Shown here piece by piece: positions 1,371-36,480 of a stretch of 36,480 nucleotides of DNA. The stretch's first letter is position 1. Each line of letters opens with the position of its first letter. A program made the translations under genes and the position numbers. Source of the stretch: a virus (taxonomy: Duplodnaviria; Heunggongvirae; Uroviricota; Caudoviricetes); IMG/VR virus record IMGVR_UViG_2526164599_000008; one strand, written 5' to 3'. The notes below the pieces were generated by a model that ran no database searches, was not told the origin of the DNA, and saw only the letters and a program-made list of their open reading frames with translations.

Positions 1371-1503
<133 letters not shown>

Positions 1504-1532
1504 CAGAACTCGCTCCAGCCTGATTGCAGATA

Positions 1533-1922
1533 TTACTCTTTTTTCTCCGTATCTACATCGGGTTCATCAGCAAATAGCTTGCCCTGCATCCGATCCAGTT
1601 CTTCTTTTCTTACCCGCTTAACCACGCTGTAGACCCACTGAAGCGAAACACCAAATTTGCGGGCCAGTTCATGGTGGTTACGTCCGTTAAACTCCCTGAA
1701 GATTTCCCGGTCGCGCTGACTGACCTTCCATACCATGCCCATCGGGAAATAAACGTTTTGCCCGCCCCAGACCTGCATCATGCGGTTCGCGACGGCCTGA
1801 CCAATCTGGTCGGCAATTGCGGGCTCAATATCAATAATCTCGCGAACGGTCTCAGAGGTATGCTGTGCCAGTTCCACCAGGAGTTCCGGCCCTTTACTTC
1901 GAAACTGATTCAGGTCGCTCAT
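1533..1922 (-). CDS. mor: Mor/C-family transcriptional activator of middle/late genes
   Basis: 129 aa. C-terminal block FREFNGRNHHELARKFGVSLQWVYSVVKR resembles the Mor/C helix-turn-helix region. GGGAG Shine-Dalgarno 6 nt upstream of the ATG. Last gene of the leftward early operon. Confidence 0.6.
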   Translation of the reverse strand: MSDLNQFRSKGPELLVELAQHTSETVREIIDIEPAIADQIGQAVANRMMQVWGGQNVYFPMGMVWKVSQRDREIFREFNGRNHHELARKFGVSLQWVYSVVKRVRKEELDRMQGKLFADEPDVDTEKKE

Positions 1923-2346
1923 GTTTTACTCCCGCAGCTCTGTGCTGCCACTTCTTCAGTTTCTCAATAACACTGCTTGCCTGTTCAGTATTGAGCCAGC
2001 GCAGGGCGCTGATGCCCGTTTCCCGCTTGATCCACCGCGCTAATGCATTTTCTGAACGGTCACGAACAATGCCGGCAGCAGCCATTTCAAGCCATAGCGC
2101 ACGGATTTTCCTGGACTGCGGATGGTTATCCAGCGGTAAACCGGAGCTGGCTTTTCTGGCAGGCTTAACGCGAAAGCCTTTCCTTTTCATGGATTCCAGC
2201 ACGCAGTTTAGTTGTGTGGTATCCATTCCTTTGGTTGAGGCTTTACCGGTCAGCCCCTGTAACATCTGGCGGTAGGTGTCTTCATCCATACCCAGTTCAT
2301 TACGGGCAATATGAATGAGCTGGATAAGACGTTGTTTAGTCATCAT
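1894..2346 (-). CDS. Mu gp16/GemA-like regulatory protein (DUF1018-like)
   Basis: Track ORF 1894..2385, start trimmed to the ATG at 2346, which is preceded by AAGGAG with a 5-nt spacer. Sequence MTKQRLIQLIHIARNELGMDEDTYRQ... resembles Mu gene-16 family proteins. Confidence 0.5.
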   Translation of the reverse strand: MMTKQRLIQLIHIARNELGMDEDTYRQMLQGLTGKASTKGMDTTQLNCVLESMKRKGFRVKPARKASSGLPLDNHPQSRKIRALWLEMAAAGIVRDRSENALARWIKRETGISALRWLNTEQASSVIEKLKKWQHRAAGVKHERPESVSK

Positions 2347-2551
2347 CGTTGCTCCTTTTACCTGCGCCACCGATATAATCGACATATAAAGGAAGCGCCA
2401 CAGGCCAGCACAGGAACATCACCGACCAGCTAATCCAGTAGCCGGCACCACTGTAACGTGAATAAAACCCTGAACGGCGGTGCAGTTCAGCAGTACACCA
2501 ACCGACAAAACAATACCAGAACAGGGCACATACAACAGATTCAGCCGTCAT
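2336..2551 (-). CDS. Small hydrophobic (membrane) protein, unknown function
   Basis: Track ORF 2336..2665 trimmed to the internal ATG (MTAESVVCALFWYCFVGW...). Two hydrophobic stretches. Short overlaps with both neighbouring genes suggest translational coupling. Confidence 0.4.
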   Translation of the reverse strand: MTAESVVCALFWYCFVGWCTAELHRRSGFYSRYSGAGYWISWSVMFLCWPVALPLYVDYIGGAGKRSNDDD

Positions 2552-2771
2552 TCTGAATATCCCCCCAACTGATATGAATATTACGGGCAGCAATGACAGG
2601 GTCGTTATTCCACCATGCACCTGACATGTATTTTTCAACCTGTTCGCGTCCGGCAATAACACCAATTGTGATCCCCGGCCTTACGTTCTTAAAAAAGGCG
2701 CGGGCAAAAAGGTATCTGGCAGATATTCGGCAGGCTTTTAATTTCCGGCTGTTACCTGATAGCGTAATCAT
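2541..2771 (-). CDS. Hypothetical early protein
   Basis: 76-aa ORF whose start overlaps the stop of the upstream gene by 4 nt. No recognisable motif. Confidence 0.35.
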   Translation of the reverse strand: MITLSGNSRKLKACRISARYLFARAFFKNVRPGITIGVIAGREQVEKYMSGAWWNNDPVIAARNIHISWGDIQNDG

Positions 2772-3451
2772 CTGGCCTCCAGTTTCTGTTGTTCCTGCCC
2801 ACTGACCGGGCGGTGCAGTCTGACGTTCTGCCCTTCACGAAACCCCGCATAGCGCGAGGCGTCGCCATTGCGGCTTCTTCCCGGTTTACGCGCCCTGGTG
2901 GTTTGCGTCTGCGGGTATTTATGTTCCAGCCACTGCTGCATCAGTTCACGTTCGTCATCGGTCAGGGCGAAGGACTGTATTTCACTGATAACGGCCAGCA
3001 CCCAGCCTTCAGCAAACTGGTCACCACGGCTGGTACGGGTGGCAGTTTTTATTCTTTTGTTCTGTGCGCTGATATACTGCTGACGCGCCTTTTTCAGCTG
3101 GCGGGCCAGCACTTCCCAGGTGTACGCAGCCAGTGCGGCCCGTTCCCGGTTGCCGTAGAACCCCACACCCGGATATGTGCCGGGGTGAATTATGGAGTTA
3201 ACACCAAATGCCTCGCGGATGATGTTCATCAGGCCCAGCATGTAGCGCGGTGGACGGAGACTGCCTGTCGGCCAGTAATGACTGATGGTTTCATCAATAT
3301 CACTCATGGCAATGTCGGAATGTGTGATGCCGTGAACATCCATCAGTTTACGGGCGCGGCGCAGTGCCAGAGCAGCCTCATACGGGTTGCCGGATGCTGC
3401 CAGCGCCAGCAACTTTTTCAGTTTTTCAATGTGTTTATCCAAGTCTGTCAT
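2768..3451 (-). CDS. DUF2786-like phage protein
   Basis: 227 aa. N-terminal IEKLKKLLALAASGNPYEAALALRRARKLM matches my memory of the DUF2786 signature. Start overlaps the upstream stop. Confidence 0.5.
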   Translation of the reverse strand: MTDLDKHIEKLKKLLALAASGNPYEAALALRRARKLMDVHGITHSDIAMSDIDETISHYWPTGSLRPPRYMLGLMNIIREAFGVNSIIHPGTYPGVGFYGNRERAALAAYTWEVLARQLKKARQQYISAQNKRIKTATRTSRGDQFAEGWVLAVISEIQSFALTDDERELMQQWLEHKYPQTQTTRARKPGRSRNGDASRYAGFREGQNVRLHRPVSGQEQQKLEAR

Positions 3452-3753
3452 TGTTCAGTATCTCCGGTGTACATGACGCCCAGCCGTGCGGCAAGGCGTT
3501 CCAGTTTTTTCTGTTTGTGGAAGTCAATCAGCCGGTCCATCCCCTGAAGGCGCAACTGCTCTGTCATGATTTCCACGTCTGCCAGCTCTGCCGCGAGGTC
3601 ACTTTCACTGCCCTGTCCGTTCAGGTTGCGGGCAGCACAGGCTGCCAGTTCAGCGGCCTCTTCTGTCAGTTTCAGGGCCTGTGCGTCCGGCCCGAAACGC
3701 TGCAGGGCCAGACGGTAGAGGGCGGTGCGGGTGAGTATGGTGTACCGTGTCAT
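3448..3753 (-). CDS. Hypothetical early protein
   Basis: 101-aa ORF, coupled to its neighbours, helical and acidic. No confident family. Confidence 0.4.
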   Translation of the reverse strand: MTRYTILTRTALYRLALQRFGPDAQALKLTEEAAELAACAARNLNGQGSESDLAAELADVEIMTEQLRLQGMDRLIDFHKQKKLERLAARLGVMYTGDTEQ

Positions 3754-3762
3754 GCTGCGCCC

Positions 3763-4035
3763 TCAGTGATTCCGGCTGACGGTGATGTGCAGACCGCCTT
3801 CTGCAGTGGTTTCCATCCGGTACGGCACCTCATGCGCTGCCGTGTGGGTTAGTGTGTTCACCAGTACCTGCAGGGCAGCCGCCTTTCCGTTGGTCGCCAC
3901 AATGGCCTGAGCGGTCATGCTGATTAGCGCCGTCAGGACGTGCTTCACATCGGTGAGGTCGCGGCATTCACACTCGTTGACATAGTGTTCAACAAGGGTT
4001 CGGGTGCGCTGTCGTGCTTCCTGTGGGGTAATCAT
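3763..4035 (-). CDS. Hypothetical early protein
   Basis: 90-aa ORF in the early operon. Start overlaps the upstream stop (4032..4035). Confidence 0.4.
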   Translation of the reverse strand: MITPQEARQRTRTLVEHYVNECECRDLTDVKHVLTALISMTAQAIVATNGKAAALQVLVNTLTHTAAHEVPYRMETTAEGGLHITVSRNH

Positions 4036-4226
4036 TGCGAGTCCTCCCTGTCAGGGCGGGAGAATTCCATGACGGGCACGTCTGCCGAAAAATGCTGGCT
4101 GCAGTACGGGCAGACCAGGGTGACGCGTACCGCAGGGATGTGGTATTTACCGGACATCACGGCGATGGCGCTGTGAAAACGCAGGGCTGTTATATCCCTC
4201 TCGCACTGAATACATTTAAATATCAT
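4032..4226 (-). CDS. Small zinc-ribbon-like protein
   Basis: 64 aa with two Cys pairs (CIQC ... CPYC). GAGGAG Shine-Dalgarno upstream of the ATG. Confidence 0.45.
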   Translation of the reverse strand: MIFKCIQCERDITALRFHSAIAVMSGKYHIPAVRVTLVCPYCSQHFSADVPVMEFSRPDREDSQ

Positions 4227-4323
4227 AATTTAATTCTCCTCTGTTTCCGGCGTGCAGAAGCCCACGGCGCTGACGCCGGAATAAAAAAGAAAATGTTTTT
4301 ATTAAATAATTAACGTGGTGTGT

Positions 4324-4854
4324 TTACTGCACATCCTGCTCAAAAGGAATTATTGAAAAATCCTCAATATCACTTTTTATGGTAATACCGGGAATATTTT
4401 TCACGGCGTCCTTTTCATTCAGGATAGCGTCTTTATTTATTTCCTCCTTTACACGGATAAAGCGCTCAAGCCCCAGACGTCTCAGTAATTCAATAACATT
4501 ATCCGCCCCACGGATACTGACTGATGGCGGACGGTTTCGCCACTGCACCTCGCCGGTGGTGAGGTTAGCGAACTTCACCTTCCCGTTGCCGGTCAGTTCA
4601 TCACGGTGTGCCTCACACCATGTCTGAATACCGGACTGCAGTTCGGCCATGCGTTTTTTCAGGCTCTCGGTGAGCGGGGCATAACGTGCGGTGATATCGC
4701 CAATGGCGTCATTCATTTCTGTTTCAGCCCTGACCAGTTCACGGTGTGCGTCACCGAGCAGTCTGATGCCCTCAATGACCTCTTCACGTGTCCCCGGCAC
4801 CCAGAGTGCTGCTGCGGCCTTGATACGTTTTGCACCTTTTGTACTTTTTGCCAT
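4324..4854 (-). CDS. gam: Gam-like host-nuclease inhibitor (Mu Gam family)
   Basis: 176 aa, Mu Gam-like length. Position just downstream of the transposition genes. Overall resemblance to Gam family proteins from memory. Confidence 0.6.
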   Translation of the reverse strand: MAKSTKGAKRIKAAAALWVPGTREEVIEGIRLLGDAHRELVRAETEMNDAIGDITARYAPLTESLKKRMAELQSGIQTWCEAHRDELTGNGKVKFANLTTGEVQWRNRPPSVSIRGADNVIELLRRLGLERFIRVKEEINKDAILNEKDAVKNIPGITIKSDIEDFSIIPFEQDVQ

Positions 4855-4881
4855 TTTTTATGATTTCTCCGGTTGTGCTGA

Positions 4882-5151
4882 TTACCACAAAGATTCCGGC
4901 CACACGACGCGACAGCCGTGCAGTTCGAAAACGCCCTGACGGAAATATCCCCTGTGGTCATGTCCGGTATACAGATAACAGGCCTTTCCCTGCTCAAGCA
5001 TGCGCATGCAATGCGCACTCCGGGAAACGCGGATGACAGGTTTGTTCCCCCTGATGGTGATGCTTTGTACATCCGTGTTCGTCGCCTTAAGCGCCATAAT
5101 GGCTGACTGCACTTTGCTGATTTGCTGGTTGATACCTGTGGTGGATTTCAT
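4882..5151 (-). CDS. Hypothetical early protein
   Basis: 89-aa ORF immediately downstream of the ATPase gene. No recognisable motif. Confidence 0.4.
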   Translation of the reverse strand: MKSTTGINQQISKVQSAIMALKATNTDVQSITIRGNKPVIRVSRSAHCMRMLEQGKACYLYTGHDHRGYFRQGVFELHGCRVVWPESLW

Positions 5152-5153
5152 TA

Positions 5154-6320
5154 TTAAACCCCTTTGACAACGTCAGCGTTGACCTGTGGAACCCCGATTT
5201 CAGCAGCCAGATTCATGGCGGCTATTACCAGGTTACTGACGGCCAGCGGATACAGCAGGCTGACCATATTTTTACGATGACTTCCCGGATTGCTCAGGCG
5301 GGCACGTATGGCATCCACTGCGCTGGCGTCCATAATGTCCGTCAGTTGTTTACCGGCCCGTTGCAGTTTGAACGTCAGAAATTCTTCAAGGTTATTGTCC
5401 AGAGGCAGAAGTTCGACCACCTCACAGCGCTGAACGACTTCACGGACTTCCATATTGCGTTCAGACAGTTTTGTCGCCAGTTCCGGCTGACCAATTAGCA
5501 CGATGGACAGCAGTTTTTTGAAACCGGACTCCAGCTCAAAAAAGCGTTTGAGGTGTTTCAGTGTCGGAATGGGCAGACTGTGGGCCTCCTCAATCACCAG
5601 AACGTGGCTGAACCCCGCCTGGCTGCTGTCTTTCAGGACGCGATGCAACTGGCGAAAGCGGGCGTCCTGACTGCGTCTGATGCTTTCCAGTGGTGCGATG
5701 GTACTGATAATGGCTTCGGCAATCGCTGCTGCCTTCAGAGTTTTCCCTTTCACATCGTTGTCTTCCATAGCGATGATGTATGGCTCGATAACAATCACTG
5801 GCGCATTCTCGCGGTTGATACGTTCAGTCAGGTCACGGCGCAGCGTGGATTTACCCGCACCGGACTCACCGATGACGGCCATAAACCCACCATGACGTGC
5901 TGTCTGGTACAACGCCTCACGCACGTAGCGAATGTCCGGGGTGGTGAACACATCATCAGAACCCTGCATGGCTTCGTCGGCGAACGGGTCACGGAAAAGA
6001 CCAAACGCTTTTTTGGTTGCTGGAAATAACACCTGTTTTTTGAGTAACATATTCTCTTCCTCACTGAGGCTCGTTTTATCTGTGGTACCCGATGTACGGG
6101 GCGTGGCCGCGCCCTGTACAGCATCAAAACTCTTCGCTGTATCAATCCCCTGACTTTCCAGCCAGGACGCAAGACGCCGGCGCACTTCTCCGGGGCTGGT
6201 GCGGGGCCACGCGTTATGATTCACAATCTGGGCCAGCGTGGCCTCAGAAACATCGACAGCTCTCGCCACCACCGCCTGTGAAATACGGGCCTCTTTCAGT
6301 TGCTGCTTCAGTACCAGCAT
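5154..6320 (-). CDS. Transposition ATPase (TnpB / Mu B-like AAA+ protein)
   Basis: Walker A GESGAGKST and Walker B-like VLVIEEAH. N-terminal HTH-like region. Track ORF starts at a GTG (6359), but the internal ATG at 6320 has GAGGAGG 5 nt upstream and lies just after the transposase stop. Confidence 0.75.
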   Translation of the reverse strand: MLVLKQQLKEARISQAVVARAVDVSEATLAQIVNHNAWPRTSPGEVRRRLASWLESQGIDTAKSFDAVQGAATPRTSGTTDKTSLSEEENMLLKKQVLFPATKKAFGLFRDPFADEAMQGSDDVFTTPDIRYVREALYQTARHGGFMAVIGESGAGKSTLRRDLTERINRENAPVIVIEPYIIAMEDNDVKGKTLKAAAIAEAIISTIAPLESIRRSQDARFRQLHRVLKDSSQAGFSHVLVIEEAHSLPIPTLKHLKRFFELESGFKKLLSIVLIGQPELATKLSERNMEVREVVQRCEVVELLPLDNNLEEFLTFKLQRAGKQLTDIMDASAVDAIRARLSNPGSHRKNMVSLLYPLAVSNLVIAAMNLAAEIGVPQVNADVVKGV

Positions 6321-6330
6321 GTTTTCCTCC

Positions 6331-8100
6331 TCAGTTGCCGTTAACAATGCTGATAACACTGCTGCGGGCCGGCGTGGTCAGCGTGGCCATGACTTCATCC
6401 AGTGCGGCTTCCGGTACGCCGTCCGGGTACTGTGCCGTTAACTGGCGGTAATGTTCCGGCGTCCAGGTAAGGCCGTTGGCGCTGAACTTCCCGCGCAGGG
6501 CTTTCGCGGCCTCCACATGAGTCATGGGACGCTGTTCAGTGCGCGGTCCGCGTACGTCAGAGGCCTGACCTCGCTTCGGCATATAGGCCGGAAGTGTGGC
6601 GTCATCAATATGTTTATACGGGTCAAGCCGCCCGCCGAACGGCAGCGCCTTCGCCTTGCGTGCGGCAGCTGCATCTGCGGCGTTGTCTGTACCGGTGACC
6701 AGCGCTTCGGTTTCTTTTGCCGCCATCTGCGCCGGGGTTTCCGGCAGGGCTTTGTAACTTTCGCCAAATACCGCCGCGCCTTCAGCAAAGCCAAACTCGT
6801 TCTTTCTGACCTCTTCGACCAGGAAGAACGTCTCGTGGCCGTCCTCACCGGTCAGAACCACCTGTGCCACATCGCTGCGCCACGGGTTACGGGTAATCAT
6901 CAGTTTTTCACCGACCAGTACGCCCGGTACCGTTGATACGTCAAATTCAGTGCCCCGGAACGAGACACGAAGTTTTGGCGTGACTTTGCGGAGTTCTGGT
7001 GCCGCCACAGCCAGTTCACGACATACCTCAACGGAAGGCGCTTTTTTCAGCTGCTCAGCAGTAATCTTCAGCCAGATATCCGTGCGGGTTTTACCGTGGC
7101 GGCTGTGAACAGCCGTGGCGTTAAAGTGGCTGCGCCATTTCGCGGCCAGCGCGTTGAGTTCTTCCAGACTGTGAACCGGCCGGAACTTCAGACCCGGCTC
7201 CAGCTTGCGTTCGATAATGTCACGCGCCTTTTCCACCTGTCCGGTGGCGCGGGCGTTATGCGGCTTGTGCGCTATCAGGTCAATGCCCAGTGAGCGGCAC
7301 ATGTTTTTCGTCATACCCGCGGTGTTTGCCGAACCGGGGTCGAGATAGAGTATTTTTGGCACGCCGTGCAGCACGTCTGCGCCGCCACGCTCCTGCATGG
7401 CGTTGATAAGCACAGAACACAGGTTCTCACCGGATTCCGCACCCGTCACATACTCAACGTAAATCCAGCCGCTGGCATGGTCGGTAATCTCGTAACTCCA
7501 CACGCGGTCACTGGCGATACGGGCAAGGTTAGCGGGTTTGTTCTTGTAGAACTTCGCGCTGTCCATCACCTGCAGCCCTTTGTGTCCATTGCTCAGGTAG
7601 TAAAGCGTGCAGAGCGAGGCATCAATCTGCCAGACATGATTGGGATGCAGACTGGCCACTTCGGTATGCGGCGCAGGAGCATCCAGTTGTTCCGGGTGCA
7701 GGCCATAGTTACGCAGGGCACGACTGATGGCATCTTCGGACAACGGGAAAAACTCACCGGTGGTTTCATCTGTTCTGCCTGCGGAGATAAAGCCGTTAGC
7801 CCGCAGGGTTTCCACTGCATCCGCGATGGAATAGAGACGCTTACCGTTCTTGCGGGTGGCCTCACGCAGTGTGGCAGATATCAGCGCGGCTTCGTCGCGG
7901 GTCAGGGCGCTGCGTCCGGCATCAGCGCGTTTTTTGCGTTTATCAGTCACAGAGACCTCCTTCAGCCTGCGCAGCAGAGTGGCGCGGGACATGCCAAGTT
8001 CAGCACAGGCAGCGTCGTATATTGCACCGCGTTTACCATGCCCCGCGTCACGTGCCGCGCGGGCGACATAAACCAGTCGTTCAGTCAGGGCAGCATTCAT
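6331..8100 (-). CDS. DDE transposase (rve/Mu-type catalytic core)
   Basis: 589 aa. Candidate catalytic residues: D in HVWQIDAS, D in ILYLDPGSAN, E about 35 residues later in GQVEKA (D,D-35-E spacing). Gene order transposase then ATPase as in transposable phages. Confidence 0.8.
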   Translation of the reverse strand: MNAALTERLVYVARAARDAGHGKRGAIYDAACAELGMSRATLLRRLKEVSVTDKRKKRADAGRSALTRDEAALISATLREATRKNGKRLYSIADAVETLRANGFISAGRTDETTGEFFPLSEDAISRALRNYGLHPEQLDAPAPHTEVASLHPNHVWQIDASLCTLYYLSNGHKGLQVMDSAKFYKNKPANLARIASDRVWSYEITDHASGWIYVEYVTGAESGENLCSVLINAMQERGGADVLHGVPKILYLDPGSANTAGMTKNMCRSLGIDLIAHKPHNARATGQVEKARDIIERKLEPGLKFRPVHSLEELNALAAKWRSHFNATAVHSRHGKTRTDIWLKITAEQLKKAPSVEVCRELAVAAPELRKVTPKLRVSFRGTEFDVSTVPGVLVGEKLMITRNPWRSDVAQVVLTGEDGHETFFLVEEVRKNEFGFAEGAAVFGESYKALPETPAQMAAKETEALVTGTDNAADAAAARKAKALPFGGRLDPYKHIDDATLPAYMPKRGQASDVRGPRTEQRPMTHVEAAKALRGKFSANGLTWTPEHYRQLTAQYPDGVPEAALDEVMATLTTPARSSVISIVNGN

Positions 8101-8103
8101 TGG

Positions 8104-9015
8104 TTATGCCTCCAGCCCGTTAATCTGTGGCGTCGGCTCAGTCAGCCATGAAGGCGCGGCATTGCCTGTTGGCTCATCCGGCAGGTCAAATGTGGAGCGC
8201 AGGCTACGCGCTGTGCTTTCCAGTTGACAGACCAGGCCTGCCATGAAGTCTCTGGGGGTATCAATCATGTTTTCAGCACAATATGCGCACAGCGTCTCAA
8301 AAGCGCTGGACAGTCGAACGGCGATAGCAGATTCCGCCTCAACCGCTAATGCTGTCACTTCCGCCCGCAGCTTCTTAACCTCTTCATCAGGCTCAGGCGG
8401 CTGAATACGGGATTTCTTCTCCAGTCTGGTGGAGAGTGAGTCTATTTTTTCATTTTTGTCAGCGAGTACGCGCTGTTGTGCTGCGTTGGTTTCGCGCGCT
8501 TCGCGCAGGGCCTGACGCAATTCACGTACTGACATGCGATCAACGTCGTCAAGCGTCAGGCCGGCAACTGTGCCGCCGTCGGCCAGTTCGGCAAGCTCTT
8601 CGTCGTCTTCTGTCATTAATTCGAAAAGTTTGGCTTTTCCCAAATGTGCCAACGTTGGCACATTTGGTTTCAGCGCCGGGGATAAGTATTTTGTCGATGC
8701 TTGCATCATTCTCACAGATGTCCGGTATGCCAGCCCCAACTCACTTTCAAGAATCTTTATAAACTCCCCGTGTGGTTCATTTTCCTTAAGGATTATCAGC
8801 CGCTTACCTGCCTCCAGCATGGCCTCAGCGCTCTGTGCCATATAAAAGCGTGCCTCATGGACAACACGATCGCGCTCATAGGGCAGACCATCGCCGAACT
8901 GTTGCATGATTTCCATGCGATGCTGTGTCATGGCGTTTAGACTGACATTGAGATCATCCGACAGCGGTACCTCGACGTTCAGTTCAGTGCTAACCGGTGA
9001 TTTGGTGCGTCCCAT
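8104..9015 (-). CDS. Hypothetical early protein with coiled-coil character
   Basis: 303-aa ORF tightly coupled upstream of the transposase gene. No confident family. Confidence 0.45.
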   Translation of the reverse strand: MGRTKSPVSTELNVEVPLSDDLNVSLNAMTQHRMEIMQQFGDGLPYERDRVVHEARFYMAQSAEAMLEAGKRLIILKENEPHGEFIKILESELGLAYRTSVRMMQASTKYLSPALKPNVPTLAHLGKAKLFELMTEDDEELAELADGGTVAGLTLDDVDRMSVRELRQALREARETNAAQQRVLADKNEKIDSLSTRLEKKSRIQPPEPDEEVKKLRAEVTALAVEAESAIAVRLSSAFETLCAYCAENMIDTPRDFMAGLVCQLESTARSLRSTFDLPDEPTGNAAPSWLTEPTPQINGLEA

Positions 9016-9025
9016 TGATTACTCC

Positions 9026-9334
9026 TTACAAACGACTACCTGAAATAACACGTTGGTTGATTTCGTTAATGCGATCCTGTGCACGTGCCATCTCGTTACT
9101 GTGGGCCATGGCGATCTGCAGCAACTGGATGCCTGGTGCGAAACGCCCGTTTTCTAGTTTCAGAGCCAACCCTTCTTCAATGAGCGTGTTAAGTGCCCGG
9201 TTGATGTTTGCCGGTGATTCGTGCAGTGCAACCGCTAGTTCCCCGTTAGAAACACCGTTCAAAGCGTGGCCACGTAAGGCCTTAAGAACGCGCAAAATAC
9301 GGGTACCTGAGCTTGATGTATTTGGTTTATTCAT
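9026..9334 (-). CDS. Small winged-helix DNA-binding protein
   Basis: 102 aa. RILRVLKAL...GVSNGELAVALHESPANINRALNTLIEEGL resembles an IclR/MarR-type winged HTH. Confidence 0.45.
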   Translation of the reverse strand: MNKPNTSSSGTRILRVLKALRGHALNGVSNGELAVALHESPANINRALNTLIEEGLALKLENGRFAPGIQLLQIAMAHSNEMARAQDRINEINQRVISGSRL

Positions 9335-9561
9335 GACGCCTCCTTAAGGATACCGGGGGTAACTTCTTTACCTATTGCAACCGATAGATCTCGCAAAATC
9401 CGATAAGTCAAACGACCGCGAGGTAGTTCACTTTTACCAGCCCAGCGACTGACTGCCTGGGTGACTGTTCGTGGTTCATAGCCCGCGTTAAGCGCGAACT
9501 GGCGCAAGCTACTGCCTCGTTCAACCAGCCGTGCCCGAACTTGTTGTTTGTTCATATGCAC
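9331..9561 (-). CDS. ner: Ner-like DNA-binding regulator (Ner/Nlp family)
   Basis: 76 aa. First gene of the leftward early operon, divergent from the repressor. HTH-like segment SLRQFALNAGYEPRTVTQAVSRW. Confidence 0.55.
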   Translation of the reverse strand: MHMNKQQVRARLVERGSSLRQFALNAGYEPRTVTQAVSRWAGKSELPRGRLTYRILRDLSVAIGKEVTPGILKEAS

Positions 9562-9643
9562 CGTGTTCCTGTTAGGTTATGATGTACTCTATTGGGTCTA
9601 TTGTACACACCCAAATGAGTGTGTCAAATTGAGATATGTTCAA
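9562..9643. promoter_or_regulatory. Divergent early promoter/operator region between ner-like and repressor genes
   Basis: About 80-bp intergenic region containing the inverted repeat ACACAC-N8-GTGTGT (around 9606..9625), a candidate operator. Confidence 0.45.
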
Positions 9644-10051
9644 ATGAGTACAAAAGAGAGATTGCGTGAAGTGATGGATGCTAATGGCATGACAATAAAG
9701 GCATTATCTAACTTATCAAAAATTCCATATCGCTCACTTCAAAACTATTTGCGTGGAGAGAGAGAACCAAACGCAGAGGCTCTTGTTGCGCTAAGCACCC
9801 ATTTGGGTGTATCGATCGATTGGCTACTTACCGGTAAAGAACATATTCCATCTAAAGAAATTGTTGCTGTACCAACACAACATCAATTCAGCCCGTCAGA
9901 CCTTAAAATGCTTGAACTTCTAAACCAGTTAGATCCTGAGGTTCGGCGAGATCTCATGCGAGGCGCTGAAGAAAAACAGCGTGTGATTGAGATGGAAAAA
10001 CAACTGAAGGAATTATCCGCAACGATTGAGCGGTTAAAAAATGTGGGTTAA
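9644..10051 (+). CDS. Immunity repressor, XRE-family HTH (Mu c-like role)
   Basis: Track ORF 9548..10051 trimmed to the ATG at 9644 (MSTKERLREVMDANGMTIKALSNLSKIPYRSLQNYL), a classic HTH_3 pattern. Divergent from the early operon. Confidence 0.65.
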   Translation: MSTKERLREVMDANGMTIKALSNLSKIPYRSLQNYLRGEREPNAEALVALSTHLGVSIDWLLTGKEHIPSKEIVAVPTQHQFSPSDLKMLELLNQLDPEVRRDLMRGAEEKQRVIEMEKQLKELSATIERLKNVG

Positions 10052-10121
10052 TGTGTTCCTAACGAGAACATATAGCAGAAATTATTTGCCATTAAGCAAT
10101 AAAAAATAAGGTGGATAGCTA

Positions 10122-11129
10122 ATGTCTGAGCAGACCATTGAAGTTAAACACGTTGTAGTTCACATTTTAGACAAACAACAAAATGGAGACGCTTCTGAGA
10201 GATTGAGTCCTGAAGAAGGTCTAGTTACTGAAGCCTCCCAGCGCCTTATAAACGATATTTGTGCAAAATATGCAGGACGCACAGGTAAAGGTTATGGCTA
10301 TTTTGAAGGCGATACGGATAACTATCCTATGGAACGAATGGCTGGGGACTTTCTCGAAGGTGTTGATGATTTCTACCAAAGTTCCTGCCGAATGATGCAT
10401 CACCTGACGGAACGTTCTCAGCGAGAAAACATGGCTACTGGTGGTTATGTTCTTTTTGCAAATATCGTGATAGGACACAATGAACACCTGTTGATAGCTA
10501 TTGTAAGCGCTACCATTGGATCCACTGTCACAGATGATTTTAACATCCAAGATAGTACCTATCTTGATATTGCTAAGCTGCGTATGGCTGGGCGCATTGA
10601 CTTAACCGCGTGGGAAAGTGGCGCAGAGCGCTATATCAGTTTTCTTAAGGGGCAAGGTAATGTTTCAAACTATTTTAAACAGTTCCTCGGCTGTAATGAT
10701 GTCTTAATCGCCAAACGAGAGTCTGAAAAGTTACGTGACGTTTTAAAAGCATTTGCGGCAGAGAAAGGACTTGACGGCGCTGAAAAAGATGCATTTCTTA
10801 AGAGTGCGTTTGAACACTTACATGCACTAAGTAAGGCTGGTGAACCACTTAGTCTTGAAACCCTTGTTAATGCCATTTGGCCCCAGGCTCCCGAGGAGTT
10901 ATCTGGTAAACTTGCTGCTGAAGAGTTGGAGTTATCGGATGGCTTCGTTCCTGATGGTCGAGTCATTCGGGCTCTGGTATCTTTTAAAGGCAAGTCTAAA
11001 TATTGGGAACTTAAGTTTGACCGGGAAGGGAAAACTGAAGGCTATATTGATTATGATCCGGAAACAAATATTATCACCCTACGTAATGTACCTGAAGAAT
11101 TTAGGGAAATGTGGATGACTGAGGTTTAA
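10122..11129 (+). CDS. NdpA/YejK-like nucleoid-associated protein homologue (cargo gene)
   Basis: 335 aa, the same length as E. coli YejK. Blocks GGYVLF, LLIAIVS, YLDIAKL, RIDLTAWESGAERYISFLKG, FKQFLG align by eye with YejK blocks as I remember them. AT-richer than the flanking phage genes. Confidence 0.5.
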   Translation: MSEQTIEVKHVVVHILDKQQNGDASERLSPEEGLVTEASQRLINDICAKYAGRTGKGYGYFEGDTDNYPMERMAGDFLEGVDDFYQSSCRMMHHLTERSQRENMATGGYVLFANIVIGHNEHLLIAIVSATIGSTVTDDFNIQDSTYLDIAKLRMAGRIDLTAWESGAERYISFLKGQGNVSNYFKQFLGCNDVLIAKRESEKLRDVLKAFAAEKGLDGAEKDAFLKSAFEHLHALSKAGEPLSLETLVNAIWPQAPEELSGKLAAEELELSDGFVPDGRVIRALVSFKGKSKYWELKFDREGKTEGYIDYDPETNIITLRNVPEEFREMWMTEV

Positions 11130-11131
11130 TC

Positions 11132-12337
11132 GTGGCGATTTCATTTGAGATGCTGACAGATCTGTATCGTCGTATGGAATTCCAAGAGGGGTTTCGTGTC
11201 GGTTCGCTGTTGCTCTTAGATCAGTCCGATTGTGATCTGGTTGATACTTTGCTTGATGATCCTCGTGAATATGGTCTTTCTATTGATACAGGCACTATCG
11301 CTCCAGGTAACACGATCATCCTACGTGTGACGTCACCACGGAGTGGACTGGGACTTGTGTTTTCCACCCATGAAAAATTGCTAAATGCTCCAAAGCATCA
11401 GTGCCTTGAGCCAGCTAATTACTTCATCCTAGAAACAAAGTTTCGTAATGATGATGAAGATATCCCCGTTTTCATCAGCAACTACCGGAAGATTCTCGAG
11501 TTCGTTAACCTGCTAAAAGAGGCCGCGGCCTACTTTGATAACTCAACTTGTCAGTTAGTTTTTCTGAAAAAAGAAGTTATCAAGCTATTACCGCACTTCG
11601 CTGCAGAAAATGTACAAAATTTGCAAAGAGAGTATCTTGATAACCTTATAGCTTGTTTCAATGATGATACCCATAAGGATCAGAAGCTAGATATTCTGAT
11701 TGAAAGTATCCAAGCAGTTAGTGATGGAATTGATTCACCTCTAGTATTCGCTTATTTACTGGACAATATTCAGCGTCTGCATGAAAAGTTTCTGAAAGGG
11801 TATCGTATCTACTCTTCTGGATTCTCTTATGACAAAGTAATGGATCAACTGCGTGCTGCAAAAGTCGAAGAAATGGGTAAAATCCACAAAGCGTTTTCAG
11901 ATATCCAGAACCATATACTTGGCATTCCTGTTGCCTCTGTTATCGTAGCTACCCAATTCAAAGTGGCTACGAAATGGTCAGGCCAAGGGATAACAAACAC
12001 AATAATTCTTCTGGGATGCATTTTTGCTGCAACGTTAATCTGGCTGGCACTTTCGAACCAGATGCAATCTATAAAGGCCTTAGGCGAAGAAATTGAATAC
12101 AAAGAAAAACAGATTAATAAGGAATATTCCTTCATTAAAGATGACGTGGCTGGTGTATTTAGCAGTATTTCTGCGCGACTAGACACGCAGAAACGTACGT
12201 TCTGGATTATACGTGGTGTTCTAGTTATGGGAATTATTACCGCTATCACTGTTTATTTTTGGTACACAAAACCAGCCCTTGACTTCATGCAGTACTTGAT
12301 TCACTGCATGAAGTCTTACTATTCGGTCAAAAGTTGA
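11132..12337 (+). CDS. Unknown protein with two C-terminal transmembrane helices, operonic with the NdpA-like gene
   Basis: 401 aa. GTG start 2 nt after the upstream stop with GAGG upstream. N-terminal soluble region of about 285 aa has no motif I recognise. Hydrophobic helices ITNTIILLGCIFAATLIWLALS and FWIIRGVLVMGIITAITVYFWY. Confidence 0.55.
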   Translation: MAISFEMLTDLYRRMEFQEGFRVGSLLLLDQSDCDLVDTLLDDPREYGLSIDTGTIAPGNTIILRVTSPRSGLGLVFSTHEKLLNAPKHQCLEPANYFILETKFRNDDEDIPVFISNYRKILEFVNLLKEAAAYFDNSTCQLVFLKKEVIKLLPHFAAENVQNLQREYLDNLIACFNDDTHKDQKLDILIESIQAVSDGIDSPLVFAYLLDNIQRLHEKFLKGYRIYSSGFSYDKVMDQLRAAKVEEMGKIHKAFSDIQNHILGIPVASVIVATQFKVATKWSGQGITNTIILLGCIFAATLIWLALSNQMQSIKALGEEIEYKEKQINKEYSFIKDDVAGVFSSISARLDTQKRTFWIIRGVLVMGIITAITVYFWYTKPALDFMQYLIHCMKSYYSVKS

Positions 12338-13097
12338 GGATAATGAGTTCCTTCTTGCGACTGGATTTGCCAGTGATCTTGAGGTTGTAGCTGATATCAA
12401 CCGACTGAATATTTAGACCGTTGAATGCCTGCCGCATTTCCGGGATATCGTTCACCGATATAATCATCTTCCCTTTGATCCTGCGTGCTAAATCTGCCAT
12501 ATGATCATAATTTTCTAGTCCGAACTCCACACCATAACCTTCCGTTCCCCAGTATGGAGGGTCACAGTAGAACAACGTATGCGGGCGATCATATCGTTCT
12601 ATGCACTGTTGCCAGTCCATGTGTTCTATGACCGTTCTGGAAAGCCGCAGGTGTGCCGCTGACAGTTCTTCTTCAATACGCAGCAGGTTGAAGCGTGGCG
12701 GGGATATGGTGGAGGTACCAAAGCTGTGCTCCGCCACCTTGCCTCCAAACGCCTGCTTCTGAAGGTAGTAGAACCGTGCTGCACGCTGGATATCCGTCAG
12801 TGTTTCTTCCGGGGTGATCTGCAGCCATTTGTAGATCTGCCGGCTGACCAGCGCCCATTTGAACTGGCGTACAAATTCTTCCAGATGATGTTTTACCACC
12901 CGATACAGGTTCACCAGTTCACCGTTGATATCATTAATGACTTCGATCTTGCCGGGTACCTTAAGAAAATAGAGCGCTGCTGCCCCACAAAACGGCTCCA
13001 CATAACATTCATGCGCCGGAAACAGCGGCAGGATGTGTTTTGCAAGGCGGCGTTTGCCACCAATCCATGGAACGATGGGTAATGTCTGCATTTTCAT
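12327..13097 (-). CDS. DNA N6-adenine methyltransferase, Dam-like
   Basis: 256 aa. AdoMet motif VEPFCGAAALYF and catalytic DPPY. Opening PWIGGKRRL matches the Dam family. Convergent with, and overlapping by 11 nt, the membrane-protein gene. Confidence 0.8.
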   Translation of the reverse strand: MKMQTLPIVPWIGGKRRLAKHILPLFPAHECYVEPFCGAAALYFLKVPGKIEVINDINGELVNLYRVVKHHLEEFVRQFKWALVSRQIYKWLQITPEETLTDIQRAARFYYLQKQAFGGKVAEHSFGTSTISPPRFNLLRIEEELSAAHLRLSRTVIEHMDWQQCIERYDRPHTLFYCDPPYWGTEGYGVEFGLENYDHMADLARRIKGKMIISVNDIPEMRQAFNGLNIQSVDISYNLKITGKSSRKKELIILNF

Positions 13098-13344
13098 AAT
13101 CTGTAAGCCTTTTACAATTATAAAAAATATGGCAGGCTAGTCTGGTCTCGCGAGACTGACTGAACCTCGGTCGGCTCACAGCGCATTCCTGTGGGGCGAT
13201 GGCCAGCCCGGTGTTCGGGTACCGGGCTGGTCGTTCTTTCAAAGTCATCATGCAGTGCACGTTTACATCTTCACTATTAACGCTGTTTAAAATCCGTATC
13301 CCGCCACATTTGTGATGCTGTCTCCACCAAACGAGGAGACACAC
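13098..13344. promoter_or_regulatory. Intergenic region upstream of the lysis/late operon; candidate late promoter
   Basis: About 250 bp non-coding. Contains the 12-bp palindrome GTCTCGCGAGAC and the stem-loop CCAGCCCGGT...ACCGGGCTGG. AGGAG Shine-Dalgarno before the ATG at 13345. Confidence 0.4.
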
Positions 13345-26718: not shown

Positions 26719-26991
26719 ATGTCACAGACCCCATCCGATACTTTTAAATTGTCTTATCCCTTCACCACTGCTGCAGGCACCAGAATTGAGCAGGTTGAAC
26801 TGAAACGCCTGACGGTAAAAGACCTGAAGCAGGTGCGCAAAATCAGCAAAAACCCGGCAGACTGGGACGAACCGCTGATTGCCCGCAGTACTGGTCTTCT
26901 CCCGGAAGATCTCGACAATATGGATCTGGCTGATTACCTGCAGTTACAGAAACGATTTCAGCTCATCACGGGGATGGGTGAGAGCAACTAG
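26719..26991 (+). CDS. Tail assembly chaperone (P2 gpE-like)
   Basis: 90 aa upstream of the tape measure. Overlapped by a second ORF, the hallmark of tail chaperone frameshift pairs. Confidence 0.6.
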   Translation: MSQTPSDTFKLSYPFTTAAGTRIEQVELKRLTVKDLKQVRKISKNPADWDEPLIARSTGLLPEDLDNMDLADYLQLQKRFQLITGMGESN

Positions 26992-27136
26992 GGCGCTGAC
27001 GCAGGCGCAGGGGCTGCTGGCGAGATGGTTCCGGTTTCAGCCGGGGGAGATTGATGCCCTCGATACTGACGATCTGGAGATGTGGCTGGAGCAGGCTGAA
27101 GAGCAAATAAAAAGCGAGTACGGCGACAAATCATAG
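26879..27136 (+). CDS. Frameshift extension of the tail assembly chaperone (E' equivalent), +1 frame relative to the chaperone
   Basis: Overlaps the chaperone ORF by 113 nt in the +1 frame and ends about 75 nt before the tape measure. Probably expressed only as a frameshift fusion. Confidence 0.5.
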   Translation: MPAVLVFSRKISTIWIWLITCSYRNDFSSSRGWVRATRALTQAQGLLARWFRFQPGEIDALDTDDLEMWLEQAEEQIKSEYGDKS

Positions 27137-32787: not shown

Positions 32788-33135
32788 ATGAAAACAACCT
32801 CAGTATTCTGGCAACCGACCCTGCAGGCTCCCGGCGAAATTGTCCGGGGGCTGGATGATATCCGGCAGGCGATTCAAATTATCCTGCGGACTCCCCGCGG
32901 CAGCGACCCGCATCGCCCGGAGTTCGGCAGCAATCTGCATCTTTATATCGACTGGCCTGTAGACCGGGCCATTCCGCATGTGGTGCGCGAATCCGTCGAT
33001 GCCATCCGGCGCTGGGAGCCCCGCTGCCAGCTTATGTCAGTTAAACCCGCCGTCGACGGCGAACATCTTACGCTCCGGGTGAGCTGGAAAGGCTCAGACG
33101 GACAGACCCGGACTCAGGAGCTGCTATGGCGCTGA
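32788..33135 (+). CDS. Baseplate protein W-like (gp25/GPW family)
   Basis: 115 aa. GLDDIRQAIQIILRTPRGSDPHRPEFGSNL matches the GPW/gp25 signature. Confidence 0.7.
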   Translation: MKTTSVFWQPTLQAPGEIVRGLDDIRQAIQIILRTPRGSDPHRPEFGSNLHLYIDWPVDRAIPHVVRESVDAIRRWEPRCQLMSVKPAVDGEHLTLRVSWKGSDGQTRTQELLWR

Positions 33136-34229
33136 CAGAACCCGATTTTATTGAACGCGATGCCGACAAAATCACGGCAGAAATGATTGCGAAGTATGAA
33201 GCGGATACCGGCAAAACGCTGTACCCGGCACAGGCAGAACGTCTGCTGATTGATCTGTGGGCCTATCGCGAAATGCTGGTCAGGGTTGCGGTACAGGAGG
33301 CAGCAAAGCAGAATCTGGTCGCCTTTGCCCGTGAGCCGATGATTGATTACCTCGGTGAACTGGTCGGTGTATACCGTCTTGCCGCGCAGCCTGCCACTAC
33401 CACGCTCCAGTTCTCCGTAGATGAGGCACTGGCCATTGATGTGCTGATCCCGGCAGGCACCCGCGTCAGCGCTTCCGACAGCGTTATTTTTGCCACCGAT
33501 ACAGATGTGGTACTGAAGGCCGGATTGCTGCTGGTCAATGTCACGTCCACCTGTACCGAACCCGGTACCGCTGGTAACGGCTGGCAACCTGCGCAGGTCA
33601 GTCAGTTACTCGATGAGATTGATAACGTCGACCTGCTGGTGAGCAATCTGACGGCCAGTTCCGGCGGTTCAGAACAGGAAGACGATGACAGGCTCCGGGA
33701 GCGTATCAGGCTGGCCCCGGAGTCATTCACCAATGCCGGAAGCCGTGGCGCATACCGCTTTCATGCCATGCAGGCCCATCCCAACATTGTCGATGTTGCT
33801 GTGCTTTCCCCGGTTCCCGGGACCGTAGATCTGTATCCGCTGCTCAGTACCGGTCTGCCGGACGGCGGTGTTCTCACGCTGGTAGAGAGTTTCTGCTCTG
33901 ATGAGAAAGTCAGGCCACTCACTGATACAGTGCGGGCTAAAACACCAGTGAAGGTGGATTACACCATTGAAGCCAAGATTACGATCTATCGTGATCAGGA
34001 TGCCAGGTCTGTAAAAGATGCCGCTAACAGCGCCATACAGAACTGGGTGGCATCACGTGCCGCCACGCTGGGGCGCGATATTGTCCCCAGCCAGATTATC
34101 AGTGCATTGTCCGTTTCCGGGGTGTACCAGGTTGAACTGGTGACACCGGCACTGCGGGTGGTGGCAGAAAACGAATGGGCAAACTGTACGGCAATCACTC
34201 TTAACATGACTGGAGTGTCTGATGACTGA
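33126..34229 (+). CDS. Baseplate protein J-like
   Basis: 367 aa directly after the W-like gene, overlapping its stop. Confidence 0.65.
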   Translation: MALTEPDFIERDADKITAEMIAKYEADTGKTLYPAQAERLLIDLWAYREMLVRVAVQEAAKQNLVAFAREPMIDYLGELVGVYRLAAQPATTTLQFSVDEALAIDVLIPAGTRVSASDSVIFATDTDVVLKAGLLLVNVTSTCTEPGTAGNGWQPAQVSQLLDEIDNVDLLVSNLTASSGGSEQEDDDRLRERIRLAPESFTNAGSRGAYRFHAMQAHPNIVDVAVLSPVPGTVDLYPLLSTGLPDGGVLTLVESFCSDEKVRPLTDTVRAKTPVKVDYTIEAKITIYRDQDARSVKDAANSAIQNWVASRAATLGRDIVPSQIISALSVSGVYQVELVTPALRVVAENEWANCTAITLNMTGVSDD

Positions 34230-34800
34230 GCCATTACAACTCCCGCCACCGCTTGAGGGTGATATCAGTCTCAGGACGCTGGGAAGACTGGCAGGACGGC
34301 TGGATAACATCGACCTGAGCGTACTGATGGTCTTTCTCGTCGATATCGTCGACAGTTCCGCGCTGCCATGGCTGGGCGAGCAGTTCTCACTGTCTGGCGA
34401 TGGCTGGGAGCTGGCGGAATCGGACGATGTTCGCCGCATGCTTATAAAAGCAGCCATCGAACTGCACCGGTATAAAGGGACGCCGTGGTCAATCCGGGAA
34501 GTTATCCGCCGTTTTGGCTTTGGTGAAGTGGATCTGATTGAAGGCACAGGTCGTCTCAGTTACGACGGCAATCGCAGCTATAACGGACTGTTTGTTCATG
34601 GAGATGCAGCCGCCTGGGCAGTTTATCGCGTTATTCTGAAACAGCCCATTACTAACGATCAGGCCGCGATGCTGCGTCAGACGCTGGCTGCATTTGCACC
34701 GGCCCGCTGCCATCTGGCCAGCCTGGAGTATCAGTCTGTGGCCATTCGCTATAACAATACCGCCATCCATGATGGCAGTTATAACCACGGGAGCAGTTGA
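34222..34800 (+). CDS. Baseplate/tail protein I-like
   Basis: 192 aa after the J-like gene, in P2 order V-W-J-I-H-G. Confidence 0.55.
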   Translation: MTEPLQLPPPLEGDISLRTLGRLAGRLDNIDLSVLMVFLVDIVDSSALPWLGEQFSLSGDGWELAESDDVRRMLIKAAIELHRYKGTPWSIREVIRRFGFGEVDLIEGTGRLSYDGNRSYNGLFVHGDAAAWAVYRVILKQPITNDQAAMLRQTLAAFAPARCHLASLEYQSVAIRYNNTAIHDGSYNHGSS

Positions 34801-35900
34801 TTATGGGAAACCTGAATGAAACAGAAAAGTGGGAAGAAAATATCTATCAACTGGAGACATCAGATCCGGTTCTGGGTGGTGCAGACGGGATATCAAATCG
34901 AGCCCCCCGGCAACTGGCAAACAGGACGAAATGGCTGAAGAAAAAAACGGAGGAAGCCGCACAGTCACTGGCTGAACACGTACGTTCCCGTAACCACCCG
35001 GACGCGACACTGACAGCTAAGGGGTTCACCCAACTGAGCAGTGCCACCAACAGCACCTCTGAAACGCTGGCCGCCACACCAAAGGCCGTCAAGGCTGCAT
35101 ATGACCTGGCTGCCGGCAAGGCCCCCGTCAGCCATACTCACCCGTGGAGTCAGATAACGGGAGTGCCTGCTGCCTCGCTGACGGCAAAAGGCACCGTACA
35201 ATTGAGCAGTGACATCAACAGCACGTCTGAAATACTGGCCGCCACACCGAAAGCGGTCAAGGCTGCATACGATCTGGCAAACGGAAAACAACCGGCAGAT
35301 GCCACGCTCACTGCTCTGGCAGGACTTGCCACTGCAGCAGATCGGTTGCCTTATTTTACCGGAGCAGACCGCGCAGCACTGACAACCCTTACAGCTATTG
35401 GTCGCGCTATTATCGCTATGGGCAGTATAAAAGAAGTCCTCAATTACCTTGGTTTAGGAGAAGGTTCTGCACTGCCCGTTGGTGTGCCCGTTCCGTGGCC
35501 CTCAGCAACACCACCAACGGGCTGGCTGAAATGTAACGGTGCAGCATTTTCTTCTGAAATGTACCCAAATCTGGCAAAGGTTTACCCAACGTTAAAATTA
35601 CCTGATTTACGCGGTGAGTTTATCCGTGGCTGGGATGATGGGCGCGGGGTGGATGCCGGAAGGGGCATCTTAAGCATGCAGGGGTGGTTAACAGGAAGTC
35701 ATTATCATAATATTCGGTCATGGGATGCGTGGGATAACACGGTACTGGTGCCAAATGACAAAAGAGGGATAGTCCGTTGTCGACAGATAACGCCGTCCGG
35801 CAAGGTGCAATTAACGGTAGGTTTACCAGTCAATACAGAACGGAATCCTCAGATGGGAATGAAAACCGCCCACGCAATATTGCCTTCAATTATATTGTGA
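34797..35900 (+). CDS. Tail fibre protein with tandem fibre repeats
   Basis: 367 aa. Two roughly 40-aa repeats (LTAKG..QLSS..NSTSE.LAATPKAVKAAYDLA) typical of tail-fibre repeat motifs. AT-richer 3' part. Confidence 0.65.
   Translation: MIMGNLNETEKWEENIYQLETSDPVLGGADGISNRAPRQLANRTKWLKKKTEEAAQSLAEHVRSRNHPDATLTAKGFTQLSSATNSTSETLAATPKAVKAAYDLAAGKAPVSHTHPWSQITGVPAASLTAKGTVQLSSDINSTSEILAATPKAVKAAYDLANGKQPADATLTALAGLATAADRLPYFTGADRAALTTLTAIGRAIIAMGSIKEVLNYLGLGEGSALPVGVPVPWPSATPPTGWLKCNGAAFSSEMYPNLAKVYPTLKLPDLRGEFIRGWDDGRGVDAGRGILSMQGWLTGSHYHNIRSWDAWDNTVLVPNDKRGIVRCRQITPSGKVQLTVGLPVNTERNPQMGMKTAHAILPSIIL
35007..35294 (+). repeat. Tandem coding repeat (2 copies of about 120 nt) inside the tail fibre gene
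   Basis: Amino-acid repeats at residues about 71..110 and 127..166 of the fibre protein, with matching nucleotide similarity. Confidence 0.6.
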
Positions 35901-35910
35901 GAACCGCATA

Positions 35911-36480
35911 ATGAATAACGCGATATTAAATGATGACCTTATTGCCGTACAGGCAGGAAACATCGTCGTTTATAACTATGATGGTGAGACACGGGAATAT
36001 ATTTCCGAATCAACTGAATATCTTGCTGTGGGTGTCGGTATTCCGGCAAATTCCTGTTTAGATGCCCCGGGCGCACATAAAGCGGGCTATGCTATCCGCC
36101 GTTCGGAGAATTTAAGTTCATGGGAGTATGCGCCAGACCATCGTGGTGAAACCGTCTATAGCACTGACACGGGAAACACCGAAGAAATCACGGCGCTGGG
36201 TGACTACCCGAAAACTACAACCACTATCGCCCCGTTAACACCATACGATAAATGGGATGGTGAAAAATGGGTGACAGATACTGAGGCACAACATCGTGCC
36301 GCAGTAGAAGCGGCAGAAACCAAGCGCCAGTCACTGGCTGATGCGGCAATGGCTTCCATAAGTCTGATTCAGTTGAAGTTGCAGGCCGGGCGGAAGTTGA
36401 CGCAGGCAGAAACCACCCGGCTTAATGCCGTGCTGGATTATATAGACGCGCTGAACGCAATGGATATAAACATGTACCAG
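35911..36480 (+). CDS. Tail fibre assembly protein (partial, 3' end beyond window)
   Basis: Open frame from the ATG about 10 nt after the fibre stop to the window end. Not in the ORF track because no stop is reached. Position and N-terminal sequence resemble tail-fibre assembly chaperones. Confidence 0.5.
   Translation, partial: MNNAILNDDLIAVQAGNIVVYNYDGETREYISESTEYLAVGVGIPANSCLDAPGAHKAGYAIRRSENLSSWEYAPDHRGETVYSTDTGNTEEITALGDYPKTTTTIAPLTPYDKWDGEKWVTDTEAQHRAAVEAAETKRQSLADAAMASISLIQLKLQAGRKLTQAETTRLNAVLDYIDALNAMDINMYQ

Follow-up and report, generated by a model that had tools for sequence, protein, structure and literature searches.

Tail-fibre region of a BcepMu-like Escherichia coli prophage: very probably one half of a Gin/Cin-family multiple-inversion host-range switch

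Invertase-driven tail-fibre switches form a well-known class. In the G segment of phage Mu, which is served by the invertase Gin, the fibre gene is split into a constant and a variable part at a 26-bp site, the tip is followed by an assembly gene, and the invertase is encoded immediately after the invertible DNA; Mu has two sites, two tips and two assembly genes, U and U'. The C segment of P1 (Cin) and the Min system of p15B, the latter with six sites, are multi-cassette fibre switches that use invertases of the same family, but they are found on plasmid prophages and involve a different fibre shaft. A layout with three inverted repeats that give four variants with three C-termini has been published for a P2-like prophage of EPEC E2348/69, in which PCR shows that all four variants coexist (Goldberg et al. 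2014, PMC4272514), and rearrangement of the fibre genes has been reported for the 'Burkho_phiE255' prophage of ST131 (bioRxiv 10.1101/2022.05.07.487787).

The window described here (the whole stretch of DNA that was analysed, 36,480 nucleotides, IMG/VR record IMGVR_UViG_2526164599_000008) ends at position 36480, which is also the end of draft contig AIHI01000010.1 (GCA_000250375.2). Its fibre region very probably represents the promoter-proximal half of a Gin/Cin-family multiple-inversion tail-fibre host-range switch, carried by a BcepMu-like prophage of E. coli. The switch belongs to the class outlined above, and its layout of three sites, four isomers and three tips is the one already published for the EPEC E2348/69 locus, with which it was compared by layout; the latter, however, resides in a P2-like integrase phage, whereas the present element is transposable. 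As in Mu, a 26-bp site divides the fibre gene, tfa comes after the tip and the gene for the invertase directly adjoins the invertible DNA, and the sites of the two systems have the core region ACC-NN-GGTTTA in common. Unlike Mu, the present locus has three sites and three tips, a single tfa, a TT core where Mu has TC, and no com or mom genes; its collar-type tip is unrelated to the tip of Mu S, which matches in the fibre-repeat region only (E 9e-6). The ST131 prophage (EC958) has the same backbone and the same order, namely the constant part (Sc), the site, a variable part (Sv), tfa, two inverted variable parts and the invertase, but carries a third fibre repeat in addition to the two seen here, a different set of three tips and a different tfa. 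The features on which the comparison is based are the following.

33126-34229: baseplate J (open reading frame list and Pfam).
34222-34800, plus strand: P2 gpI-like tail protein I, which closes the run of baseplate genes ahead of the fibre gene (Pfam Tail_P2_I, E 1.2e-24).
34803-35900, plus strand: fibre open reading frame with two Phage_fiber_2 repeats and a Collar domain (open reading frame list and Pfam).
34803-35450, plus strand: constant part Sc, from the ATG to the crossover core (open reading frame; GC 0.545).
35010-35119, plus strand: fibre repeat copy 1, Phage_fiber_2 (Pfam and DNA repeat comparison).
35178-35287, plus strand: fibre repeat copy 2, Phage_fiber_2 (78% identical to copy 1).
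35437-35462, no strand: left crossover site, TCCTCAATTACC TT GGTTTAGGAGAA, with its TT core at 35449-35450.
35451-35911, plus strand: variable part Sv1, the tip now expressed (Pfam, PDB matches and three-cassette alignment).
35481-35624: collar domain in Sv1 (Pfam Collar, PF07484, E 5e-14, 52.4 bits, above the gathering score).
35681-36140, plus strand: AT-richest core, covering the unique fibre tip and the Tfa N-terminal domain (GC 0.459).
35700-35708: HxH motif in Sv1.
35766-35768, plus strand: G run one base short, GGG for GGGG (comparison with the 30 best relatives listed).
35911-36480, plus strand: tfa, tail-fibre assembly gene, 190 of 203 codons (Pfam Caudo_TAP, PF02413, E 2e-25).

The first 1371 nt of the window are host DNA of E. 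coli (ynbC/ynbD/azoR). The remainder (1372-36480) is 99.969% identical, with 9 mismatches and 2 one-base gaps, to a prophage of E. coli DLI.5a, and the prophage of strain E30 is equally near (∼99.97%); both of these genomes are complete. The three copies occupy three different chromosomal sites, with a host gene or region interrupted at each. Genes of the element code for a DDE transposase with an annotated ExeA-family protein beside it, and for Gam and Mor. The transposase shares 98% identity with the one encoded by Escherichia phage PhiKM, classified in Bcepmuvirus. Its best relatives beyond E. coli and Klebsiella are those of the Burkholderia phages phiE255 and BcepMu (69% identity), and Mu is absent among the 25 best-ranked of the 69 records that match the transposase. 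As in BcepMu, the early operon runs outward, and the gene order and the P2-type tail and baseplate are likewise those of BcepMu and phiE255. Judged from its sequence, the backbone is that of a BcepMu-like transposable prophage of E. coli and not of Mu, because of this transposase kinship and the outward-reading early operon. Identity as a Mu prophage (Muvirus) was considered and is ruled out by the transposase relatives and by the early operon reading outward and not inward from the left end. The first-pass annotation, which had drawn the comparison with Mu, was correct as to an invertible fibre segment but not as to the backbone.

The fibre open reading frame likely starts at ATG 34803, with GGGAG 9 nt upstream, rather than at TTG 34797. 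In its constant part it is 94–98% identical to the fibre genes found in PhiKM and in the ST131 prophages; similarity to PhiKM ends at 35279 and that to the ST131 prophages near 35650. Pfam reports two matches to Phage_fiber_2 (PF03406; E 5.7e-38, 128.7 bits, above the gathering score). In DNA the repeats are two 110-nt copies, 168 nt from start to start, and in protein they are two units of ∼37 aa with a spacer of ∼19 aa between them. Tandem Repeats Finder reported no array for the fibre repeats, since they are spaced and not head to tail; of the two tandem 40-aa repeats proposed from the sequence at first sight, the two repeats are thus present while a strictly head-to-tail arrangement is not. 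The PGAP annotation splits this fibre gene in every relative examined.

Downstream of the constant part, Sv1 is composed of the collar domain, the HxH motif, a unique tip and a conserved C-terminal strand. Its sequence matches PDB entries 2XGF and 9CUY, and the conserved strand aligns with the T4 gp37 tip and with a solved short tail fibre; the ...NIAFNYIVR motif, which relatives have in frame, is out of frame in the window. The tfa gene lies directly 3' of the fibre gene, and its ATG at 35911 overlaps the fibre stop codon in the frame of the conserved end. Tfa is made up of Caudo_TAP_N and Caudo_TAP domains, the full 203-aa protein from a 99.97%-identical prophage matching Caudo_TAP with an E value of 9e-31, and a PDB sequence search with Tfa gave no match. 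The assembly gene is truncated, as noted at the outset, because the source assembly breaks at 36480. A fibre with a collar-type receptor-binding tip, followed by the Tfa chaperone, makes up 34803-36480 (Pfam; the T4 gp37 tip is matched in the PDB sequence search), in agreement with its initial description as a host-range module. No receptor is assignable from the nearest tips with a characterised phage (P2-like, HK97 Stf), which are ∼53–59% identical, mostly in the collar.

Base composition sets this part of the fibre and tfa apart from the late operon. Segments of 1030 nt across the late operon (13345-34796) have a mean GC of 0.565 (sd 0.024), and the value of 0.493 for 35451-36480 falls in the lowest 0.24% of them; quantitatively, composition is not uniform, and the AT-richness ascribed to the C-terminal part of the fibre and to tfa on first reading is real. 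The drop in GC starts at the crossover site and not at an arbitrary C-terminal point, and the entire module, from crossover site through invertase, is at ∼0.49. The GC of 35681-36140 is below that of every 460-nt segment of the late operon. In Mu Tfa, according to a passage of PMC9608196 that cites North et al. 2019, a variable N-terminal domain binds the fibre and a conserved C-terminal domain trimerises. Here the AT-richest stretch corresponds exactly to the tip plus the Tfa N-terminal domain, with conserved sequence bounding it, and therefore marks a co-adapted unit of tip and chaperone; 35681-36140 is a co-adapted exchange unit.

The same unit is found on other backbones. The unique tip together with the Tfa N-domain (35660-36140) recurs at 98–99.4% identity in ∼65 complete E. 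coli genomes, and in the two of these that were examined the cassette resides in P2-like prophages with an identical (WP_001057725.1) or near-identical Tfa. These P2-like prophages have different baseplate and shaft genes, and carry 5–6 tip cassettes, one tfa and a Gin-like invertase. The nearest phage relative is the P1-like vB_EcoM-673R5, with 73% amino acid identity in the Sv1 tip and 84% DNA identity over tip and tfa. Occurrence of the same tip and tfa in P2-like prophages indicates that the cassette has been horizontally exchanged, as the first-pass annotation had suggested. The only fibre of BcepMu, 785 aa long, has an acyltransferase after it, and tfa, cassettes and invertase are all absent there; the switch is therefore an enterobacterial acquisition.

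The left crossover site is located inside the fibre gene, at the junction of the constant and variable parts. Its pattern occurs once in the window (0.02 expected by chance), and the site is identical to that of the EC958 prophage at 26 of 26 positions and to Mu gix (TTATCCAAAACC TC GGTTTACAGGAA) at 17 of 26. The DNA that would follow the contig end can be read in the 99.97%-identical prophages of DLI.5a and E30, where the 203-codon tfa is followed on its 3' side by two cassettes on the opposite strand (Sv2 and Sv3), the invertase and the prophage end. Sv2 and Sv3, which are seen only in these relatives, are inverted and promoterless open reading frames of 157–158 codons with Collar domains and a ...RPRN(I/V)AFNYIVRAA end; each has a partner crossover site ahead of it, the second site of the locus being ...GAAAACG TT GGTTTGGGGGAA and the third ...ATAAACG TT GGTTTAGGGGAA. 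A repeat of 215–235 nt is common to the expressed gene and both inverted cassettes and begins exactly at TTGGTTT. Neither Sv2 nor Sv3 has a tfa of its own, so that three tips are served by a single tfa. The invertase is a protein of 190 aa with Resolvase and HTH_7 domains (Pfam E 8e-51 and 1e-12); over residues 1–181 it is ∼78% identical to Mu Gin (structures 3UJ3 and 4M6F; E 1e-93), and the 5' part of its gene aligns well with Mu gin. Extension of the sequence in these near-identical prophages thus reveals the alternative cassettes, Gin-like serine invertase gene and crossover sites that an invertible fibre segment, as first suspected by analogy with Mu, calls for.

Inversion itself is evident in the sister prophage that lies beside aroA in ST131 (e.g. 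EC958), whose invertase protein (WP_000904922.1) and 26-bp left site are identical to those described here. One site facing two others makes four isomers and three alternative tips possible. The isomers expected for the sister prophage, if inversion at the TT cores is conservative, were constructed and set against natural genomes. All 3500 nt of predicted isomer B are present without mismatch (100.000%) in E. coli AR_0055, and predicted isomer D agrees with strain 4/0 at 100.000% over 2861 nt. At least 12 complete genomes contain the full-length synthetic Sc-Sv2 junction at 100% identity, and 64 records match it at 99% or more; the reference orientation is the commonest. The exact prophage is in one orientation in all three of its copies (the window, DLI.5a and E30), and inversion is therefore demonstrated for the sister prophage only.

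These observations suggest how the switch may operate. The constant part (34803-35450), which carries the two fibre repeats, would attach to the baseplate, and the 26-bp site at 35437-35462 joins it to the exchangeable Sv1, with its collar and receptor-binding tip, tfa coming after. Past the contig end there would be two promoterless tip cassettes in the opposite orientation, with a crossover site before each, and then the serine invertase gene. The invertase is expected to cut at the TT core and to invert the DNA between the fibre-gene site and either distal site, which would join Sv2 or Sv3 in frame to the constant part and so generate four isomers with three tips. A Fis-dependent recombinational enhancer in the 5' part of the invertase gene may be used, and the distal part is probably still present in this genome; exact-protein look-ups of Sv2-type proteins, made for the rest of the prophage in GCA_000250375.2, returned other assemblies only. 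Inversion would be expected to change host range, most likely through recognition of lipopolysaccharide (LPS).

The copy in the window departs from its relatives within the module. Eight of the nine mismatches with DLI.5a, and both gaps, fall within 35456-36474. Six of the mismatches form a patch at 35456-35507, directly 3' of the core, in which DLI.5a and E30 equal their own Sv2 while the window matches the EC958 site; the match to Sv2 points to gene conversion among cassettes. Half-site exchange by inversion was considered as a cause of the patch and rejected, because the right half-site travels with its cassette, and since the first ∼60 nt of Sv1 equal Sv2 in DLI.5a and E30, gene conversion between cassettes fits better. 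The other differences include the short G run, where the window has 481 nt against 482 in every one of the 30 E. coli genomes listed as its best matches. The frame is shifted from codon 323 and, owing to the missing G, the open reading frame ends at 35900 instead of 35911; the conserved end (...ENRPRNIAFNYIVRTA and the stop codon) is read in the other frame (35777-35911). There are also substitutions at 35775 (C, Leu to Pro) and 35821 (G, silent), and a second one-base deletion (a single G) in tfa at ∼36474, 6 nt before the contig end.

It is about equally likely that the Sv1 frameshift is an error of the draft assembly or a real lesion that hits only this one tip. We consider it slightly more likely than not that reads from isomers, or from paralogous tip and tfa cassettes in other prophages of the same genome, were merged to give the frameshift, the substitutions and the truncation, the real gene being intact and encoding 369 aa. 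The contig stops inside tfa, and drafts very often break in this module, many contigs of 1.5 kb consisting of only Sv2, tfa and Sv1; moreover, paralogous cassettes at 98–99% identity are common in E. coli prophages and the indels lie in homopolymers. However, the contig continues undisturbed through the crossover site and the shared repeat of 230 nt, where a break would usually be expected. Alternatively, and with a chance that is appreciable though below even, the gene is a real pseudogene, in which one-base deletions in tip and tfa inactivate adsorption in the present orientation, so that the prophage is either decaying or fibre-competent only after inversion. None of the 30 best relatives listed shares the missing G or the substitutions at 35775 and 35821 with the window, substitutions are atypical of homopolymer errors and, the conversion patch aside, four of the five differences over 35 kb are concentrated in this 1 kb. 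Such a lesion is harder to reconcile with both indels being losses of a single G in G runs, one of them 6 nt short of the point where the draft contig stops, with the other 34 kb having no indel, and with the frameshifted protein being found on AIHI01000010.1 only.

The switch may change more than the tip, since only one tip has tfa after it and two of the four isomers turn tfa away: inversion to Sv2, or directly to Sv3, points the sole tfa away from the late promoter. A scan of the distal region for promoters and terminators found sites no more often than in shuffled sequence, and so gives no support for a leftward promoter that would express the inverted tfa. We raise, as a tentative and rather unlikely extension, a two-layer host-range switch that alternates between a fibre that Tfa folds and caps and fibres whose folding needs no dedicated chaperone. 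If this were true, a genuine frameshift in Sv1 would be a lesion that can be bypassed by inversion.

It is improbable that the fibre is instead a fixed mosaic without active switching, its tip and tfa acquired by homologous recombination and the distal cassettes or the invertase lost or inactive here, for although all three copies of the exact prophage share one orientation and the gene-conversion patches among cassettes indicate homologous recombination at work, three genomes are too few for minority isomers to be expected, the invertase open reading frame is intact in the relatives and identical to that of the inverting ST131 prophage, and the crossover site is identical to that of this sister at every one of its 26 positions.

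A multiple-inversion switch of the Gin/Cin family, the reading that we prefer for this region, leaves existing knowledge of how such switches work unchanged. Its use is in part for annotation, in that the expressed tip cannot count as the only specificity of the phage; the module is also a pitfall for annotation and assembly, with the fibre gene fragmented by PGAP and drafts routinely broken inside it. For the biology of these phages, the locus illustrates cleanly how a host-range inversion module passes between unrelated backbones, P2-like, P1-like and BcepMu-like.

Within window 1372-13300, the early genes of the prophage, encoding the transposase, an ExeA-family protein, Gam and Mor, form a minus-strand operon that runs outward to the left prophage end and is divergent from the late operon. 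This arrangement of early and late genes is of the BcepMu type and not of the Mu type. The insertion sites differ in all three copies of the prophage (the window, DLI.5a and E30). An island of AT-rich DNA separates the repressor from the lysis genes:

Window 10122-13097: AT-rich island, GC 0.41-0.46, flanked by repressor and lysis genes

The proteins encoded there are an NA37 nucleoid-associated protein (Pfam 1e-80), a Dam-type D12 methyltransferase and a 401-aa protein that has no Pfam match and a weak match to KwaA (PADLOC, 8e-5); the island may be accessory or defence-related.

Two annotated peculiarities concern tail genes. The tail assembly chaperone gene (window about 26719-27136; 1720-2137 in L001, the near-identical prophage locus of a complete E. 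coli genome) is flagged with an 'internal stop' and is overlapped by a GpE-family ORF, as would be expected from programmed frameshifting in chaperones of the P2 E/E+E' type rather than from a defect. The intact fibre ORF, of 371 or 445 codons, is cut by RefSeq (PGAP) into 'partial' pseudogene pieces and a short 'phage tail protein' in all genomes examined (L001 9798-10913, locus L004 4798-6135 and relatives), which appears to be an artefact caused by the repeats and cassettes.

The invertible unit also leaves its mark on draft genomes. Many draft E. coli assemblies hold a separate contig of ∼1.5 kb that carries only the tip cassettes Sv2 and Sv1 with the fibre assembly gene tfa between them (L017-L026, 1.47-2.05 kb) and ends in the shared repeats, so the unit routinely breaks short-read assemblies. 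Larger tip arrays are found in two P2-like prophages:

L013 2124-6984: P2-like fibre-tip array
L014 2100-7473: P2-like fibre-tip array

These arrays comprise five or six tip cassettes, a Gin-like invertase and a single tfa, which always lies directly 3' of the Sv1-type tip; most tips therefore have no dedicated chaperone gene.

The ST131 prophage occurs as isomer D in E. coli strain 4/0 (L008, NZ_CP023849.1, 2502-6971), where it matches the predicted inversion product exactly as far as the third crossover site. Past that site, the invertase and aroA are replaced by sequence from a P2-like prophage, namely its fibre shaft and tail protein I (WP_000071724.1). The strain 4/0 chromosome has apparently been rearranged by recombination between two different prophages at a crossover site.
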